Origin: a virus
Taxonomy: Duplodnaviria > Heunggongvirae > Uroviricota > Caudoviricetes
Virus record (IMG/VR): IMGVR_UViG_2579778919_000012
Reading direction: 5' to 3' (one strand)
DNA length: 8,472 nucleotides
Shown: positions 1 to 8,472 of the stretch, piece after piece
How positions within the stretch are numbered: position 1 is the stretch's first letter
Layout of the letters: every line of letters begins with the position of its first letter
The notes under the pieces: generated by a model
Told to the model about the DNA's origin: nothing
Database searches by the model: none
What the model saw: the letters and a program-made list of their open reading frames with translations, nothing else
Made by a program: the position numbers and the translations under genes

Positions 1-648
1 TTACTTCCATCCACACGCTTTTTGAAGTGGCTTCAATGCCTCTGACAGACCAGCAACATCAAATGTCGCACTCACGGGACTTTCATTGTAAGGCGTGATC
101 TGAGTAAACATTGAGTTAGCCTGGCTCAGCGCCTTGACGAACTCGATGACATTGCCACGATAAAATACCGATTTGGTATCGCTAGATATGTCCCATGTTT
201 TCGTTTTTGCCTTCTGTTTATCCAAGCGAGATAACATCTGTGTTTCGTTCAACCCAAGATAGGTATCCCAATTGAGGAAAAGTTCTGTTTTTTTCTCGCG
301 GCAAGTGATGTAAAGACTTGGTGTGATCGATTCCCCAAACTGCGACCGGAAAGAATCATTAGCAGAAAGGCTAACATAAACATTCTCTGAATCATCCACG
401 GGTGAAGTTTTCGTGGATACCTGCCATTTTCCAACACCTACTACTGGCTTAGCCTCTTCGGCTACTTTCGGTGGAAGAACCTTATCGTAACAAGCTAAAC
501 GCGCATCACTTTTTGCCTCGGATTGGCATTTCATTAATGCGTCATTGTTAATATCGGCTTTAACTGGTTCTACCGCATACGCTGTTGATACAGCAGAAGA
601 GCAAAGCGCCATAGCAATGATTATCTTTTTCATACCATTACCTTTCAT
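1..648 (-). CDS. Hypothetical secreted/periplasmic protein (cleavable Sec signal peptide, cysteine-containing mature domain); family not recognised
   Basis: 215-aa ORF. N-terminus MKGNGMKKIIIAMALCSSAVSTAYA-VEP has a hydrophobic core and an AYA cleavage motif; no canonical lipobox. The true start may be the internal ATG at 633 (MKKIII...), which is preceded by AAGG about 7 nt upstream. The annotated ATG at 648 overlaps the upstream gene's stop as ATGA. GC is roughly 43-46% by eye, against 55-62% in the tail genes. Confidence 0.55.
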   Translation of the reverse strand: MKGNGMKKIIIAMALCSSAVSTAYAVEPVKADINNDALMKCQSEAKSDARLACYDKVLPPKVAEEAKPVVGVGKWQVSTKTSPVDDSENVYVSLSANDSFRSQFGESITPSLYITCREKKTELFLNWDTYLGLNETQMLSRLDKQKAKTKTWDISSDTKSVFYRGNVIEFVKALSQANSMFTQITPYNESPVSATFDVAGLSEALKPLQKACGWK

Positions 649-998
649 GATTTCGGGCGAGTAAAGAAAACAAACATTCCGATAATGATATCGCCAATAA
701 CCCAGATGGTTCCCAGCATCATCATCCCCAGCCCCGTACCAATTGCGGCTCCGGCCCGTTCTGCGTCTGAGGCTGCGTTATTGATAACGTCACTACTGCC
801 GCCAGCCCCGGCAAAAATGCAATAGATCATAAAGATGTTAAACAGGATAAATATCCACTTAACGATCTTGCCAAAAAATGAGCGCTTCGGCTTTCTGACC
901 TGATGGCCGCAAGACGGACATTTAAACGCTGAATCACTAATTTCTTTACTGCATTCCGGGCAGTTTACTAATGCCATTTTCCTAGACTCCATAGACAT
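645..998 (-). CDS. Small membrane protein with N-terminal zinc-ribbon (CPEC-x12-CPSC) and two predicted transmembrane helices; function unknown
   Basis: 117-aa ORF. The CxxC...CxxC motif is followed by a basic stretch (RKPKRSFFGK) and two hydrophobic segments (IVKWIFILFNIFMIYCIFAGAGG and MMMLGTIWVIGDIIIGMFVFFT). An alternative start at 977 (MALVNCPEC...) has a better GGAG/AGGA Shine-Dalgarno. The stop overlaps the downstream ORF start (ATGA), suggesting translational coupling. Confidence 0.55.
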   Translation of the reverse strand: MSMESRKMALVNCPECSKEISDSAFKCPSCGHQVRKPKRSFFGKIVKWIFILFNIFMIYCIFAGAGGSSDVINNAASDAERAGAAIGTGLGMMMLGTIWVIGDIIIGMFVFFTRPKS

Positions 999-1040: not shown

Positions 1041-1075
1041 AATAAATAAAAATTAACCCGCCATATAGGCGGGTT
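1041..1075 (-). terminator. Rho-independent terminator downstream of ogr (possibly bidirectional)
   Basis: An 8-bp GC-rich stem (1055-1062 aacccgcc pairing with 1068-1075 ggcgggtt) with a 5-nt loop. On the - strand it is followed by the T-rich tract AATTTTTATTTATT (1054..1041). It lies 3 nt after the ogr stop codon. On the + strand the same hairpin is followed by ATTTT. Confidence 0.6.
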
Positions 1076-1078
1076 ATT

Positions 1079-1321
1079 TTAGAGTGCCAGCGATAACTGA
1101 TCTTCGCCGTGGTGACTTCGTGGAAAAGCTTCTTGTGGCACCATCGCGCCGGGCGCTGGCTGGGTCTGGTTTAGTGAACCGTCTATTTCCGTCATGCTGG
1201 TGAAACAGTACCCGCACAACATATTTTGACACTGGTGATAGCTGCGTCGTACAAGCAAACTCAGCTCAACGCTGGTTCTGGTTTTTGCTATTGCACGGCA
1301 GCGAGGACAGCGCATTGCCAT
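1079..1321 (-). CDS. ogr: Ogr/Delta-family zinc-finger late transcription activator
   Basis: 80-aa ORF with Cys spacing C5-x2-C8-x22-C31-x4-C36 and the motif YHQCQN-x2-C, matching the P2 Ogr zinc finger as I recall it. Strong RBS AAGGAGG 8 nt upstream of the ATG. Sits immediately downstream of gene D, as in P2. Confidence 0.88.
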   Translation of the reverse strand: MAMRCPRCRAIAKTRTSVELSLLVRRSYHQCQNMLCGYCFTSMTEIDGSLNQTQPAPGAMVPQEAFPRSHHGEDQLSLAL

Positions 1322-1369
1322 ACGCGGGCCTCCTTTCAGGACTGGTTAATATCAACGCAAGTATAACGC

Positions 1370-2488
1370 TTAAGACGTTGAATCGTCACTCTCCGCTGTC
1401 CAGTCGTCGATTTTTACTTCCAGTTCCAGCGACGTGGTAAACCCTCCCCCGCCAATATCGTGAACGCACCGCGTTATCGTCCAGTTCCCACTGTCGATCG
1501 TGGACTTAAAGCCGTAGACGCTGGCGGGCTGTTCCGGGTACAAATCTGCGCGGCCACGCGCCAGGGTGATGCTGAACGTAGCCGCACCGCGCTGCAACTC
1601 CCGCCACTTAGCCGCAGCGGCACGCTTCGCCGCCTTTTCCGTCTTGAAGGTTTTACGTATAACAAAAACGTTACCTTCGGCCCCGGCCAGATAATCACCC
1701 TCTTTTTTGCTGGATGCAGGCTCTTTCTTTTTGGCCTGGCTGGTTCGTCGCCTGCGGGTTGTTTTCTTCACGGTAGTGGATGGTTTCTTGCCAAAGTTGA
1801 GATCAAGCCAGTATGCAGTTACGCCCGTGTACGCGTCGCGGTCAGCTACGTTAAAGCTATGTTTATCACCGCTTGACCGGACTATCTCGATCACCGGCAG
1901 CGGCTTGCCGCTCTGCGTCACTCCTTTGCCCGGCGTGATAAACAGAAGCATACCGTTTTTAATGGTTGCCACCGCGCCCAGCATTTCGGCCATGCGCGTT
2001 AAGAAGCTGATATCTGATTCACTCGTCTGATCGGCGTGGTCTATCTCAATCTTCGCCAGTTCTTCGCTGACACCCGCACGCAGATCGTAGCGACTGGCAA
2101 TGCTGGCGACCACATCCCCCACGGTAATATCGTGCCAGCTATATTCCCTTTTCACGTTGAAGGTATCGCGGAAATCTGCGCTTCTGGCACTGATCGTTAG
2201 CTGGTCAGGCGGGCCTGAATGACCTATCTCATCAACCGTATACACGCCCTTAAAAACCAATGGATCATTATCCCAGCCCAGCGCCACCGATATCTTTGCG
2301 CCGCGTGGTGGTAATGCTACCTGCCCGTCTGCATCATCCAGAGTCAGATCCAGCGTGTCCGCTTCAAATCCCCGGTTATCTGTCAGGGAAAGAGAGATCA
2401 ACCGGTTATCCAGCGCCGTAAGCTGATTACCTTCAATTTCAATACTGAACGCCGGGCGCGGCGAATATCGGTTTTCTGTCGTGTCCAT
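1370..2488 (-). CDS. D: Late control gene D protein (P2 gpD family; baseplate hub, VgrG/gp27-like)
   Basis: 372-aa ORF, close to the ~387 aa of P2 gpD, lying directly upstream of ogr on the same strand. RBS GAAGGGG 5 nt before the ATG. Contains an internal Lys/Arg-rich linker. Family call is from recalled similarity and synteny, not a search. Confidence 0.8.
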   Translation of the reverse strand: MDTTENRYSPRPAFSIEIEGNQLTALDNRLISLSLTDNRGFEADTLDLTLDDADGQVALPPRGAKISVALGWDNDPLVFKGVYTVDEIGHSGPPDQLTISARSADFRDTFNVKREYSWHDITVGDVVASIASRYDLRAGVSEELAKIEIDHADQTSESDISFLTRMAEMLGAVATIKNGMLLFITPGKGVTQSGKPLPVIEIVRSSGDKHSFNVADRDAYTGVTAYWLDLNFGKKPSTTVKKTTRRRRTSQAKKKEPASSKKEGDYLAGAEGNVFVIRKTFKTEKAAKRAAAAKWRELQRGAATFSITLARGRADLYPEQPASVYGFKSTIDSGNWTITRCVHDIGGGGFTTSLELEVKIDDWTAESDDSTS

Positions 2489-2554
2489 ATCAACCCCTTC
2501 ATCATGATGGGGTACATCGTCGCCACGCGCGCGCGCATGAACAACGCCCCGTCA

Positions 2555-2574
2555 TTGTTGCAGGTTGCTGACAA
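2555..2574. promoter_or_regulatory. Ogr-type late promoter activator site (TGT-N12-ACA dyad) in the divergent D/FI intergenic region
   Basis: Exact TTGT-N12-ACAA inverted repeat (tgt 2556-2558, aca 2571-2573), centred at 2564.5. That is about 81 bp upstream of the FI ATG and about 76 bp upstream of the D ATG. P2/P4 late promoters carry TGT-N12-ACA centred near -55. A weak -10-like GATATT lies at 2611-2616 for the + strand. Confidence 0.6.
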
Positions 2575-2645
2575 CCCTTATTCATCGCATCAGCCTGCCA
2601 TTGCCGCAATGATATTCGCAGTCATTAAACTGGCGAGGCAAATAC

Positions 2646-3839
2646 ATGGCCACTAACTACCATCACGGTGTAACCGTCACGGAAACCACCGACCTTAGCA
2701 CGATGATCACCGACATTGATTCGGCGGTGATCGGCGTTGTCTGCACCGCTGATGATGCGGACGAAACAGCGTTCCCGCTGGATACCCCTGTACTGATCAC
2801 CCGCGTGGCTAACATGCTGGGCAAGGCAGGTAAAACCGGCACCCTGTTTACCACCTTGAAAGCGATTTCAGACCAGACCAGCCCGCAAACCATTGTGATC
2901 CGCGTTGCTGATGCTGCAAATATCGAACCGCCAGAAGGCGGCACCGCACAGACACAGGATCAACTGGTTATTGGCGGCACCGATGCAAACGGACGCTTTA
3001 CCGGCATGTACGCGCTGCTGTCTGCCGAAATGCGCGTAGGCGTGCGCCCGCGTGTGCTGGCTGTTCCCGGTCTTGATACGGAAGCGGTGGCCGCACAACT
3101 CGGCGTCATTGCCGAAAAGCTGCGCGCGTTTGCTTACGTGGCAGCGAACGGCTGCAACAGCATCGCCGAAGTGAAGGAATACCGCGAACAGTTCTCCCAG
3201 CGTGAAATGATGGTTATCTGGCCTAATTTCATCTGCTACGACACCAACGCCGGAGCGAATGCCACCGTGCCCGTGGGTGCCCATGCGGTTGGGATGCGCG
3301 CCAAAATCGACGCAACGCAGGGCTGGCATAAAACCATTTCCAACGTGCCCGTTAATAACGTGCTGGGGATGGATCGGGATATCTATTTCACGTTGCAGGG
3401 CACCGATACCGACGCCGACGAACTGAACGCAGCAGGCGTTACCACGCTGATCAAGCAGGACGGCTACCGCATCTGGGGATCGCGTACCTGCGACGCGGAA
3501 ACGTATATCTTCGAAAGCTATACCCGAACCGCGCAGATCGTTGCGGATACCGTCGCCGAAGCACATTTCGCCTATGTTGATAAACCGCTTACCCCGTCGC
3601 TGGTAAAGGACATTGTGGACGGCATCAATAAGAAGCTGACCTCATATGTGACGGCTGGCAAGCTGCTGGGCGCCCGCTGCTGGTATGACCCGGAACCGAA
3701 TACCTCGGAAACCCTGCGCAATGGTCAACTGACCATTAAGTACAACTACACCCCTGTTCCACCGCTGGAAAATCTCAGCCTGGTACAGGAGTTCACCGAC
3801 GAATATTTCGCTACGTTTTCCAGCGCAGTGAATAACTAA
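2646..3839 (+). CDS. FI: Contractile tail sheath protein (P2 gpFI family)
   Basis: 397-aa ORF (P2 FI is ~396 aa). N-terminus MATNYHHGVTV resembles P2 FI (MSDYHHGVQV) as recalled, with conserved-looking blocks such as LRAFAY, WHKT and YTPVPPLENL. RBS GAGG 7 nt upstream. Followed by the tube gene. Confidence 0.9.
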   Translation: MATNYHHGVTVTETTDLSTMITDIDSAVIGVVCTADDADETAFPLDTPVLITRVANMLGKAGKTGTLFTTLKAISDQTSPQTIVIRVADAANIEPPEGGTAQTQDQLVIGGTDANGRFTGMYALLSAEMRVGVRPRVLAVPGLDTEAVAAQLGVIAEKLRAFAYVAANGCNSIAEVKEYREQFSQREMMVIWPNFICYDTNAGANATVPVGAHAVGMRAKIDATQGWHKTISNVPVNNVLGMDRDIYFTLQGTDTDADELNAAGVTTLIKQDGYRIWGSRTCDAETYIFESYTRTAQIVADTVAEAHFAYVDKPLTPSLVKDIVDGINKKLTSYVTAGKLLGARCWYDPEPNTSETLRNGQLTIKYNYTPVPPLENLSLVQEFTDEYFATFSSAVNN

Positions 3840-8022: not shown

Positions 8023-8472
8023 ATGATGATGATTCTGGGGATGTTCCCCTTTTCACTGCAAACCACACCTTACCAGAGTGCGAATAAAACCAACTCCTGG
8101 CGGCACGTCAAAAACGATCGCGTGGGGAAATCCCCGCGCTATCAGTTCATCGGCGCAGATGAAGAACCGTTCGTACTCAGCGGCACGCTGTACCCCGAAA
8201 TAAGCGGCGGTGATGTGTCGCTTGTCATGCTGGAAACTATGGCTTTTTCCGGGCGCCCGTGGCCCCTGATAGAAGGCACGGGCAGGATCTACGGCATGTA
8301 TGTAATTGAGCAGATCACGCAAAACCGGACGGAGTTTTTTAAGGACGGGAAGGCAAAGAAAATTGATTTCACGCTCAACCTGAAACGGGTAAGCGAGGAC
8401 ATACGGGAAAAGCTGGCTGAAACCACTACCGACGATCTCTTCTCTCTGGTGAAAACCAACCTTTCGATATAA
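8023..8472 (+). CDS. U: Tail protein gpU (P2 GpU family)
   Basis: 149-aa ORF directly after T (P2 gpU is ~159 aa). N-terminus MMMILGMFPF and the blocks RPWPLIEGTGRIYGMYVI and RTEFFKDG resemble P2 gpU as recalled. The stop codon is the last triplet of the window. Confidence 0.85.
   Translation: MMMILGMFPFSLQTTPYQSANKTNSWRHVKNDRVGKSPRYQFIGADEEPFVLSGTLYPEISGGDVSLVMLETMAFSGRPWPLIEGTGRIYGMYVIEQITQNRTEFFKDGKAKKIDFTLNLKRVSEDIREKLAETTTDDLFSLVKTNLSI

Follow-up and report, generated by a model that had tools for sequence, protein, structure and literature searches.

In the GenBank record of phage P2 two divergent late units are separated by a single feature that carries the annotation "activator binding site; pO, pP promoters"; the pP start is at 3016 and the pO start at 3127, 111 bp apart. 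The centre of this site, an imperfect TGT-N12-CCA dyad, is 55.5 bp from each annotated start. The other late promoters in the record keep to similar distances: starts lie 55.5-58 bp from the site centres (55.5 for PO and PP, 57-58 for PF), the pV start falls on the V start codon, and the -10 hexamers that go with the annotated starts (GAAACT for pO, TAGCCT for pP, CAATCT for pV and GAAAAT for pF) begin at 42.5-44.5 bp from those centres. The pP/pO precedent for a shared site rests on this GenBank annotation; work by Christie and Calendar in 1985 is said to support it. A comparable layout is found among divergent class I promoters with one CRP site in common, where this symmetric site upstream of the -35 element and a contact with the alpha C-terminal domain make activation in both directions possible, although CRP is a different protein from the small C4 zinc-finger activator of P2 and both the site and its spacing differ.

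A second property of P2 that bears on the present locus is the way in which ogr is expressed. The genes of P2 are ordered FI-FII-E-T-U-D-ogr, all on one strand, so that D and ogr end the pF operon, which starts at pF and reaches the ogr terminator some 6.6 kb on. The record places a promoter for ogr in the gap that separates it from D, and lets the ogr transcript and the late F operon finish at one terminator, that of ogr. Late co-transcription of ogr was reportedly shown in P2 by Birkeland and co-workers in 1991. Given the annotated pO/pP site and the terminator that also ends the F operon, shared-site bidirectionality and autoregulation of ogr are both already present in P2.

[quoted passage not shown] For Smp131 the promoters PP' and PO' are given as a single 18-mer, read once on each strand (PMC3931495). 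No description of a site shared between the F operon and D was found in the literature; promoters are not discussed in the SEN4/5 paper, and late start sites are absent from the BTP5 transcriptome paper.

The stretch of DNA analysed here (the window, 8472 bp) shares 94% identity with the Salmonella phages SEN4 and SEN5 and 98% with an E. coli prophage that adjoins fieF (megablast), and on these matches it is a Senquatrovirus (SEN4/SEN5)-like prophage of the P2 family (Peduoviridae). The gene D for the tail baseplate hub ('late control D'; 1370..2488, minus strand; Pfam Phage_GPD, 68 bits) encodes a protein 99% identical to D of SEN5. It is followed on the same strand by ogr (1079..1321), encoding the Ogr/Delta zinc-finger late activator. 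The tail sheath gene FI (2646..3839, plus strand; Pfam sheath domains) is the first of a rightward operon in which FII, E, T and U come after it. Compared with P2, the FI-FII-E-T-U block has been inverted, and as a result FI and D-ogr diverge from a gap of 157 bp. A Felsduovirus with 54% identity in D retains the P2 gene order, which makes the inversion a marker of the clade.

Two further ORFs on the minus strand, a VasI/TagO-like ORF (1..648) and a zinc-ribbon ORF (645..998), make up a cargo region (1..998) beyond the ogr terminator, at the end of the prophage that adjoins fieF. The VasI/TagO-like protein is of a type VI secretion-associated kind. SEN5 carries another ORF in place of these two, and DNA resembling the cargo region is present in the phages 500465-2, PhiR44_2 and Shae_phiSM. 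At the other end, just past window position 8472, the E. coli prophage contains (at 23580..26163) a Hin/Gin-type recombinase gene together with oppositely oriented copies of tail-fibre and assembly genes beside U. This is an invertible host-range segment, which is absent from SEN5.

The dyad between FI and D

The D start codon (CAT on the plus strand) ends at 2488 and the FI ATG begins at 2646, which leaves an intergenic region of 157 bp (2489..2645). A reading of the sequence on its own had noticed here one perfect Ogr-type dyad, TTGT-N12-ACAA at 2555..2574, about 81 bp from the FI start and about 76 bp from the D start. The dyad is present as described, with TTGT at 2555-2558, ACAA at 2571-2574 and the core TGT-N12-ACA at 2556..2573, and from its centre at 2564.5 the two distances measure 81.5 and 76.5 bp. 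The same reading had reported a second, overlapping inverted repeat, AACAA-N11-TTGTT at 2541..2559; such a repeat exists, but its spacer and left boundary have to be corrected to AACAA-N10-TTGTT at 2540..2559. Read on the D strand, its AACAA arm is a TTGTT at +21..+25 from the dyad centre. This arm is the conserved -35-slot TTGTT of the leftward promoter described below.

The core TGT-N12-ACA occurs just once in the whole window, and the 157-bp region still contains no more than one dyad when up to one mismatch is allowed. Shuffled sequences yield 1.58 such cores per window and about 0.03 per 157 bp, so that by count a single occurrence is only mildly unlikely. The significance of the dyad lies in its conservation. 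Searches with the D protein yielded 127 loci with the same divergent layout, covering D identities from 100% down to 60% and representing 96 unique intergenic sequences. The hosts belong to many genera of Enterobacterales, among them Salmonella, Citrobacter, Hafnia, Enterobacter, Pectobacterium, Photorhabdus, Xenorhabdus and Yersinia, as well as Providencia, Morganella, Brenneria, Erwinia, Pantoea, Klebsiella and Edwardsiella. Nearly all of the 96 sequences have one dyad at 80.5-85.5 bp from the FI ATG, and with the exception of a few doubtful start calls its centre is found 55.5 to 83.5 bp from the D ATG. The position is thus kept across the 127 loci while the 12-bp interior varies: the half-sites carry close to 2 bits of information per position and the interior close to none, which is the pattern that a protein binding site would be expected to leave.

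The FI-proximal half-site reads AGA instead of ACA in distant lineages, and the Providencia loci have TCT-N12-AGA, hinting at co-variation of the site and its activator. The divergent region with the dyad and the mirrored hexamers described below is also found in Xenorhabdus and Photorhabdus, and P2-type tailocin loci (xenorhabdicin and photorhabdicin) may be among these. Such tailocin loci have been described as flanked by an ogr-like gene (PMC13280938).

Putative promoter elements on the two sides of the dyad

On the FI side, a -10-like hexamer AATGAT (2608..2613, plus strand) occupies +44..+49 from the dyad centre, and 17 bp upstream of it the -35 slot is filled by TCGCAT (2585..2590), a poor match to TTGACA. 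The P2 geometry would put the start of this promoter, PF, near 2620, some 55.5 bp from the centre, with a predicted leader of 26 nt that has a GAGG ahead of the FI ATG. The D side mirrors this arrangement: the hexamer GACGAT (2516..2521, minus strand) again lies at +44..+49, TTGTTC (2539..2544) takes the -35 slot with the same 17-bp spacing, and the predicted start of the leftward promoter, PD, falls near 2509, followed by a leader of about 20 nt with AAGGGG ahead of the D ATG. GACGAT is a poor -10 element, and a sigma-70 scan leaves both TCGCAT-17-AATGAT and TTGTTC-17-GACGAT under its threshold. The two cores are thus weak, which is consistent with a requirement for an activator.

The conservation of these elements was studied in 24 lineages, selected at less than 80% pairwise identity over 60 bp either side and anchored on the dyad centre, by tallying hexamers of the form nAnnnT at each offset. 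On the FI side a peak was found at +44 in 22 of the 24 lineages, and on the D side at +44 in 19 and at +45 in three more, every other offset reaching at most 5/24; the criterion is a loose one that is satisfied by chance in 1/16 of cases per offset, and the lineages are related by descent, so that the counts do not represent independent events. The D-side hexamer keeps its offset of about 43.5 bp from the dyad centre in 22/24 lineages although the distance to the D ATG varies between 55.5 and 83.5 bp. Position +20..+22 on this side is a conserved GTT. The predicted PD start is further supported by the D ATG itself, which never comes nearer to the dyad centre than 55.5 bp.

That nearest approach is seen in a Yersinia lineage, where 55.5-56.5 bp separate the centre from a D ATG that has no Shine-Dalgarno sequence, a geometry that fits a leaderless message beginning exactly at the predicted start. 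The P ATG of SEN5 (2990..2992) is likewise 55.5 bp from its dyad and without a Shine-Dalgarno sequence. D of the Yersinia lineage and P of SEN5 may thus be translated from late mRNAs that are leaderless, and the P2 record implies as much for V.

As negative controls, promoters that work in one direction were examined for the mirrored hexamer. Among the P2-order phages the dyad is 80.5-82.5 bp from the FI ATG (14 distinct upstream contexts), practically as in the window, and PF shows the hexamer in the FI direction in 14/14 contexts and in the opposite direction in 1/14. For PV the corresponding figures, from five lineages, are 5/5 and 1/5. The rarity of the mirrored hexamer in these unidirectional controls indicates that it is specific to divergent arrangements. 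As a positive control, the single dyad in the P/O gap of SEN5 is flanked at +44 by AATGAT on one side and by TAGCCT on the other.

In all, SEN5 has seven perfect dyads, three of which are intergenic and located where P2 has late promoters (P/O, upstream of V, and FI/D). Relatives of the O (scaffold) protein were considered as a wider positive control and set aside, their diversity being too low (about three lineages).

The FI/D site shares its design with pP/pO of P2 and with the phage's own P/O region. In P2 and in the window one dyad lies between divergent late units with hexamers 43.5 bp out on both sides and starts 111 bp apart, the starts being mapped in P2 and predicted in the window (near 2509 and 2620). 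The two systems differ in the genes served, terminase/portal and scaffold/capsid in P2 against the tail sheath operon and D-ogr in the window, in the dyad, which is perfect (TGT-N12-ACA) in the window, and in the leftward arm, which in the window has a TTGTT and an alternating CG run. What is new is the position of the FI/D site, which was created by the inversion of the FI-U block.

We propose that the 157-bp region consists of two back-to-back Ogr-dependent late promoters on one shared activator site, a reading to which we give a probability of roughly 0.8 and which draws on comparison of sequences throughout. The dyad is real and very probably functional, and it adds one more case to a design that is already known. 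The Ogr protein, whose gene lies 1.2 kb to the left, would bind the dyad at 2555..2574 and bring in RNA polymerase on either side by means of the alpha-subunit contact that P2 Ogr makes; placed halfway between two weak cores, a site that is nearly symmetric can offer one face to each polymerase. With the dyad centre near -55.5 for both, PF would drive FI-FII-E-T-U and PD would drive D, the activator dependence of both promoters being part of the proposal. That a single palindromic site might serve both directions had been put forward from the sequence alone, and this idea is supported by the conservation of the dyad, by the mirrored hexamers at the P2 offset and their rarity in unidirectional controls, by the likeness of the D-side arm to PV (see below), and by the lack of room for a separate site. 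A distinct, non-overlapping -55 site for D would need its centre at or left of about 2544, which moves the start to the D ATG or beyond it.

The D-side arm, the expression of ogr and other readings

Read towards D, the D-side arm is CCTGCAACAA TGACGGGGCG TTGTTC ATGCGCGCGCGCGTGGC GACGAT. The promoter PV of SEN5 (9262..9320) reads CCCGCCACAA TGGCGCCGCG TTGTTT GCGCGCGCGCGACTCCT GATACT, and 34 of 50 ungapped positions agree between the two, where other pairs of arms agree at 9-26. Shared features are TTGT-N12-ACAA, 10 bp, TTGTT, a CG run and GAnnnT at +44; PV differs from the FI/D region in being unidirectional, its opposite arm lacking the hexamer at +44. Three copies of the composite TTGT-N12-ACAA-N10-TTGT are present in the 33.5 kb of SEN5, where 0.09 would be expected: one at P/O, one at PV, and one at F/D that reads towards D. 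Judged by this likeness, the D-side arm is probably a late promoter of the phage's own PV type.

The alternating CG run, CGCGCGCGCGC at 2526..2536, is located in the PD spacer at +29..+39 on the D side, and is conserved there across the 24 lineages. SEN5 has such runs on the P side of P/O (3012..3019) and in PV (9298..9308). In PD, PV and the P side of P/O the run is 8-11 bp long and lies between the -35 slot and the -10 hexamer; it is absent from the PF and PO spacers. In pP of P2 a GC-rich stretch is found at the position of the CG run. The sequence CGCGCGCG at SEN5 11358 was considered as a fourth promoter of this kind and rejected, since it is inside a coding sequence and has no dyad.

The activator that would act on these promoters is encoded by an intact gene: Ogr scores 50.9 bits against Pfam Ogr_Delta (cut-off 26.3) and has the C4 motif CX2C-X22-CX4C. 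A candidate ogr promoter, GTGACG-18-TATACT (1360..1389, minus strand; 9/12 matches in the sigma-70 scan), overlaps the D stop codon, at a place equivalent to that of the ogr promoter in the P2 record. All lineages checked retain a -10 of the form TATAMT or TAnAAT between D and ogr; in the distant ones the hexamer, TAGAAT or TAAAAT, is formed by the D stop codon itself. A strong intrinsic terminator (1054..1076, minus strand; a 9-bp stem, 6 of its pairs GC, followed by a T run) lies past ogr, and the terminator scan gave none on the minus strand between 1321 and 2488. It appears, then, that ogr has a conserved sigma-70-like candidate promoter of its own and that D-ogr is not a simple operon. 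As in P2, ogr follows D directly, has its own promoter in the gap and shares one terminator between the two transcripts; the difference is that D and ogr form a separate short unit (about 1.4 kb) on the other face of the PF site instead of the end of the long pF operon. The PD transcript would read on into ogr, so that Ogr would be made first from the sigma-70-like promoter at the D stop codon and be boosted late from PD. Positive feedback on ogr via PD is plausible, and would be the arrangement of P2 transferred to a shorter unit.

The SEN5 RefSeq entry has no proper ogr CDS, and carries the note 'late control protein ogr' on SEN5_29, a 120-nt ORF on the opposite strand; tblastn finds a full Ogr of 80 aa at 22042..22281 (plus strand).

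Of the other readings, the one that survives best lets the dyad serve PF only and has D transcribed from an Ogr-independent TTGTTC-17-GACGAT promoter, perhaps with another factor acting on the CG run. The D-side arm does look sigma-70-like, its -35 slot containing TTG and its spacer being 17 bp long, and the CG run and TTGTT, which are conserved on this side and not on the FI side, could belong to another regulator. The phage also needs an Ogr-independent route to its first Ogr, but the conserved promoter that overlaps the D stop codon already provides one. In SEN5 PV, an expected late promoter, a dyad is followed at identical spacing by the TTGTT, the CG run and the hexamer found on the D side, and a similar arm, with its TTGT shifted by 2 bp, is present on the P side of P/O, where a late promoter is likewise expected. 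An independent promoter need not, moreover, keep its hexamer at a fixed distance from the dyad while the distance to the D ATG changes, and the sigma-70 scan does not call the D-side arm. We therefore regard an Ogr-independent PD as unlikely.

A still smaller chance, in our estimate a very slight one, is given to a pair of activator sites, with D using a second, degenerate dyad such as CGC-N12-ACA at 2526..2543, 30 bp to the left. In several lineages a one-mismatch version, TGC-N12-ACA, recurs at 111.5 bp from the FI ATG, among them those of Xenorhabdus, Photorhabdus and Brenneria. The element has two mismatches in the window, and is accounted for by the -35-slot TTGT together with the CG run, a combination that also occurs at PV without dyad symmetry. 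As the site for D it was rejected on its geometry: acting from -55, its centre at about 2534.5 would lead to a start near 2479, inside the D coding sequence. The comparative data already contradict a reading in which the palindrome is a chance match, or a hairpin or terminator, with no role in activation. Chance can account for one TGT-N12-ACA in 8.5 kb, and a 5-bp stem at 2563..2576 is picked up by the terminator scan, but the position is conserved across the 127 loci, the stem is not, the interior varies without compensation, which destroys any hairpin, no gene on either strand reads into the dyad, and SEN5 has dyads at all three expected late-promoter positions.

A 50-aa ORF (2504..2656, plus strand), which corresponds to the hypothetical protein SEN5_27 (20707..20859 in SEN5), covers the promoter region and was also considered as a gene and rejected. 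Since the longest ORF in this region switches strand and frame among the lineages, the call is probably an annotation artefact; a similar one is found in PhiR44_2.

Significance for the P2-like clade

Two back-to-back late promoters on one site would explain how the essential tail gene D is expressed after the loss of its link to the F operon, in a large P2-like clade that covers the relatives of Senquatrovirus as well as the Xenorhabdus and Photorhabdus loci, with their possible tailocins. The proposed solution is the reuse of the upstream face of the PF activator site, in the manner of P2 pP/pO, and no new regulatory principle is involved. For annotation it yields a simple rule by which late promoters in this family can be located, namely a dyad followed by an nAnnnT hexamer 44 bp from its centre, and it flags spurious small ORFs that have been annotated across the promoter region.

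A more far-reaching interpretation, which we consider rather improbable, is that the inversion gave rise to a dedicated, short autoregulatory D-ogr unit and that the CG run, shared by PD, PV and PP and missing from PF and PO, is a separate control element. If so, firing of D-ogr from the site of the tail operon would make a tighter commitment switch than the long read-through of P2. One possibility is that the CG run acts as a spacer that is sensitive to supercoiling or replication. It is a long-standing observation that late transcription in P2 needs DNA replication as well as Ogr, and a spacer of that kind would, if real, bear on this replication requirement.
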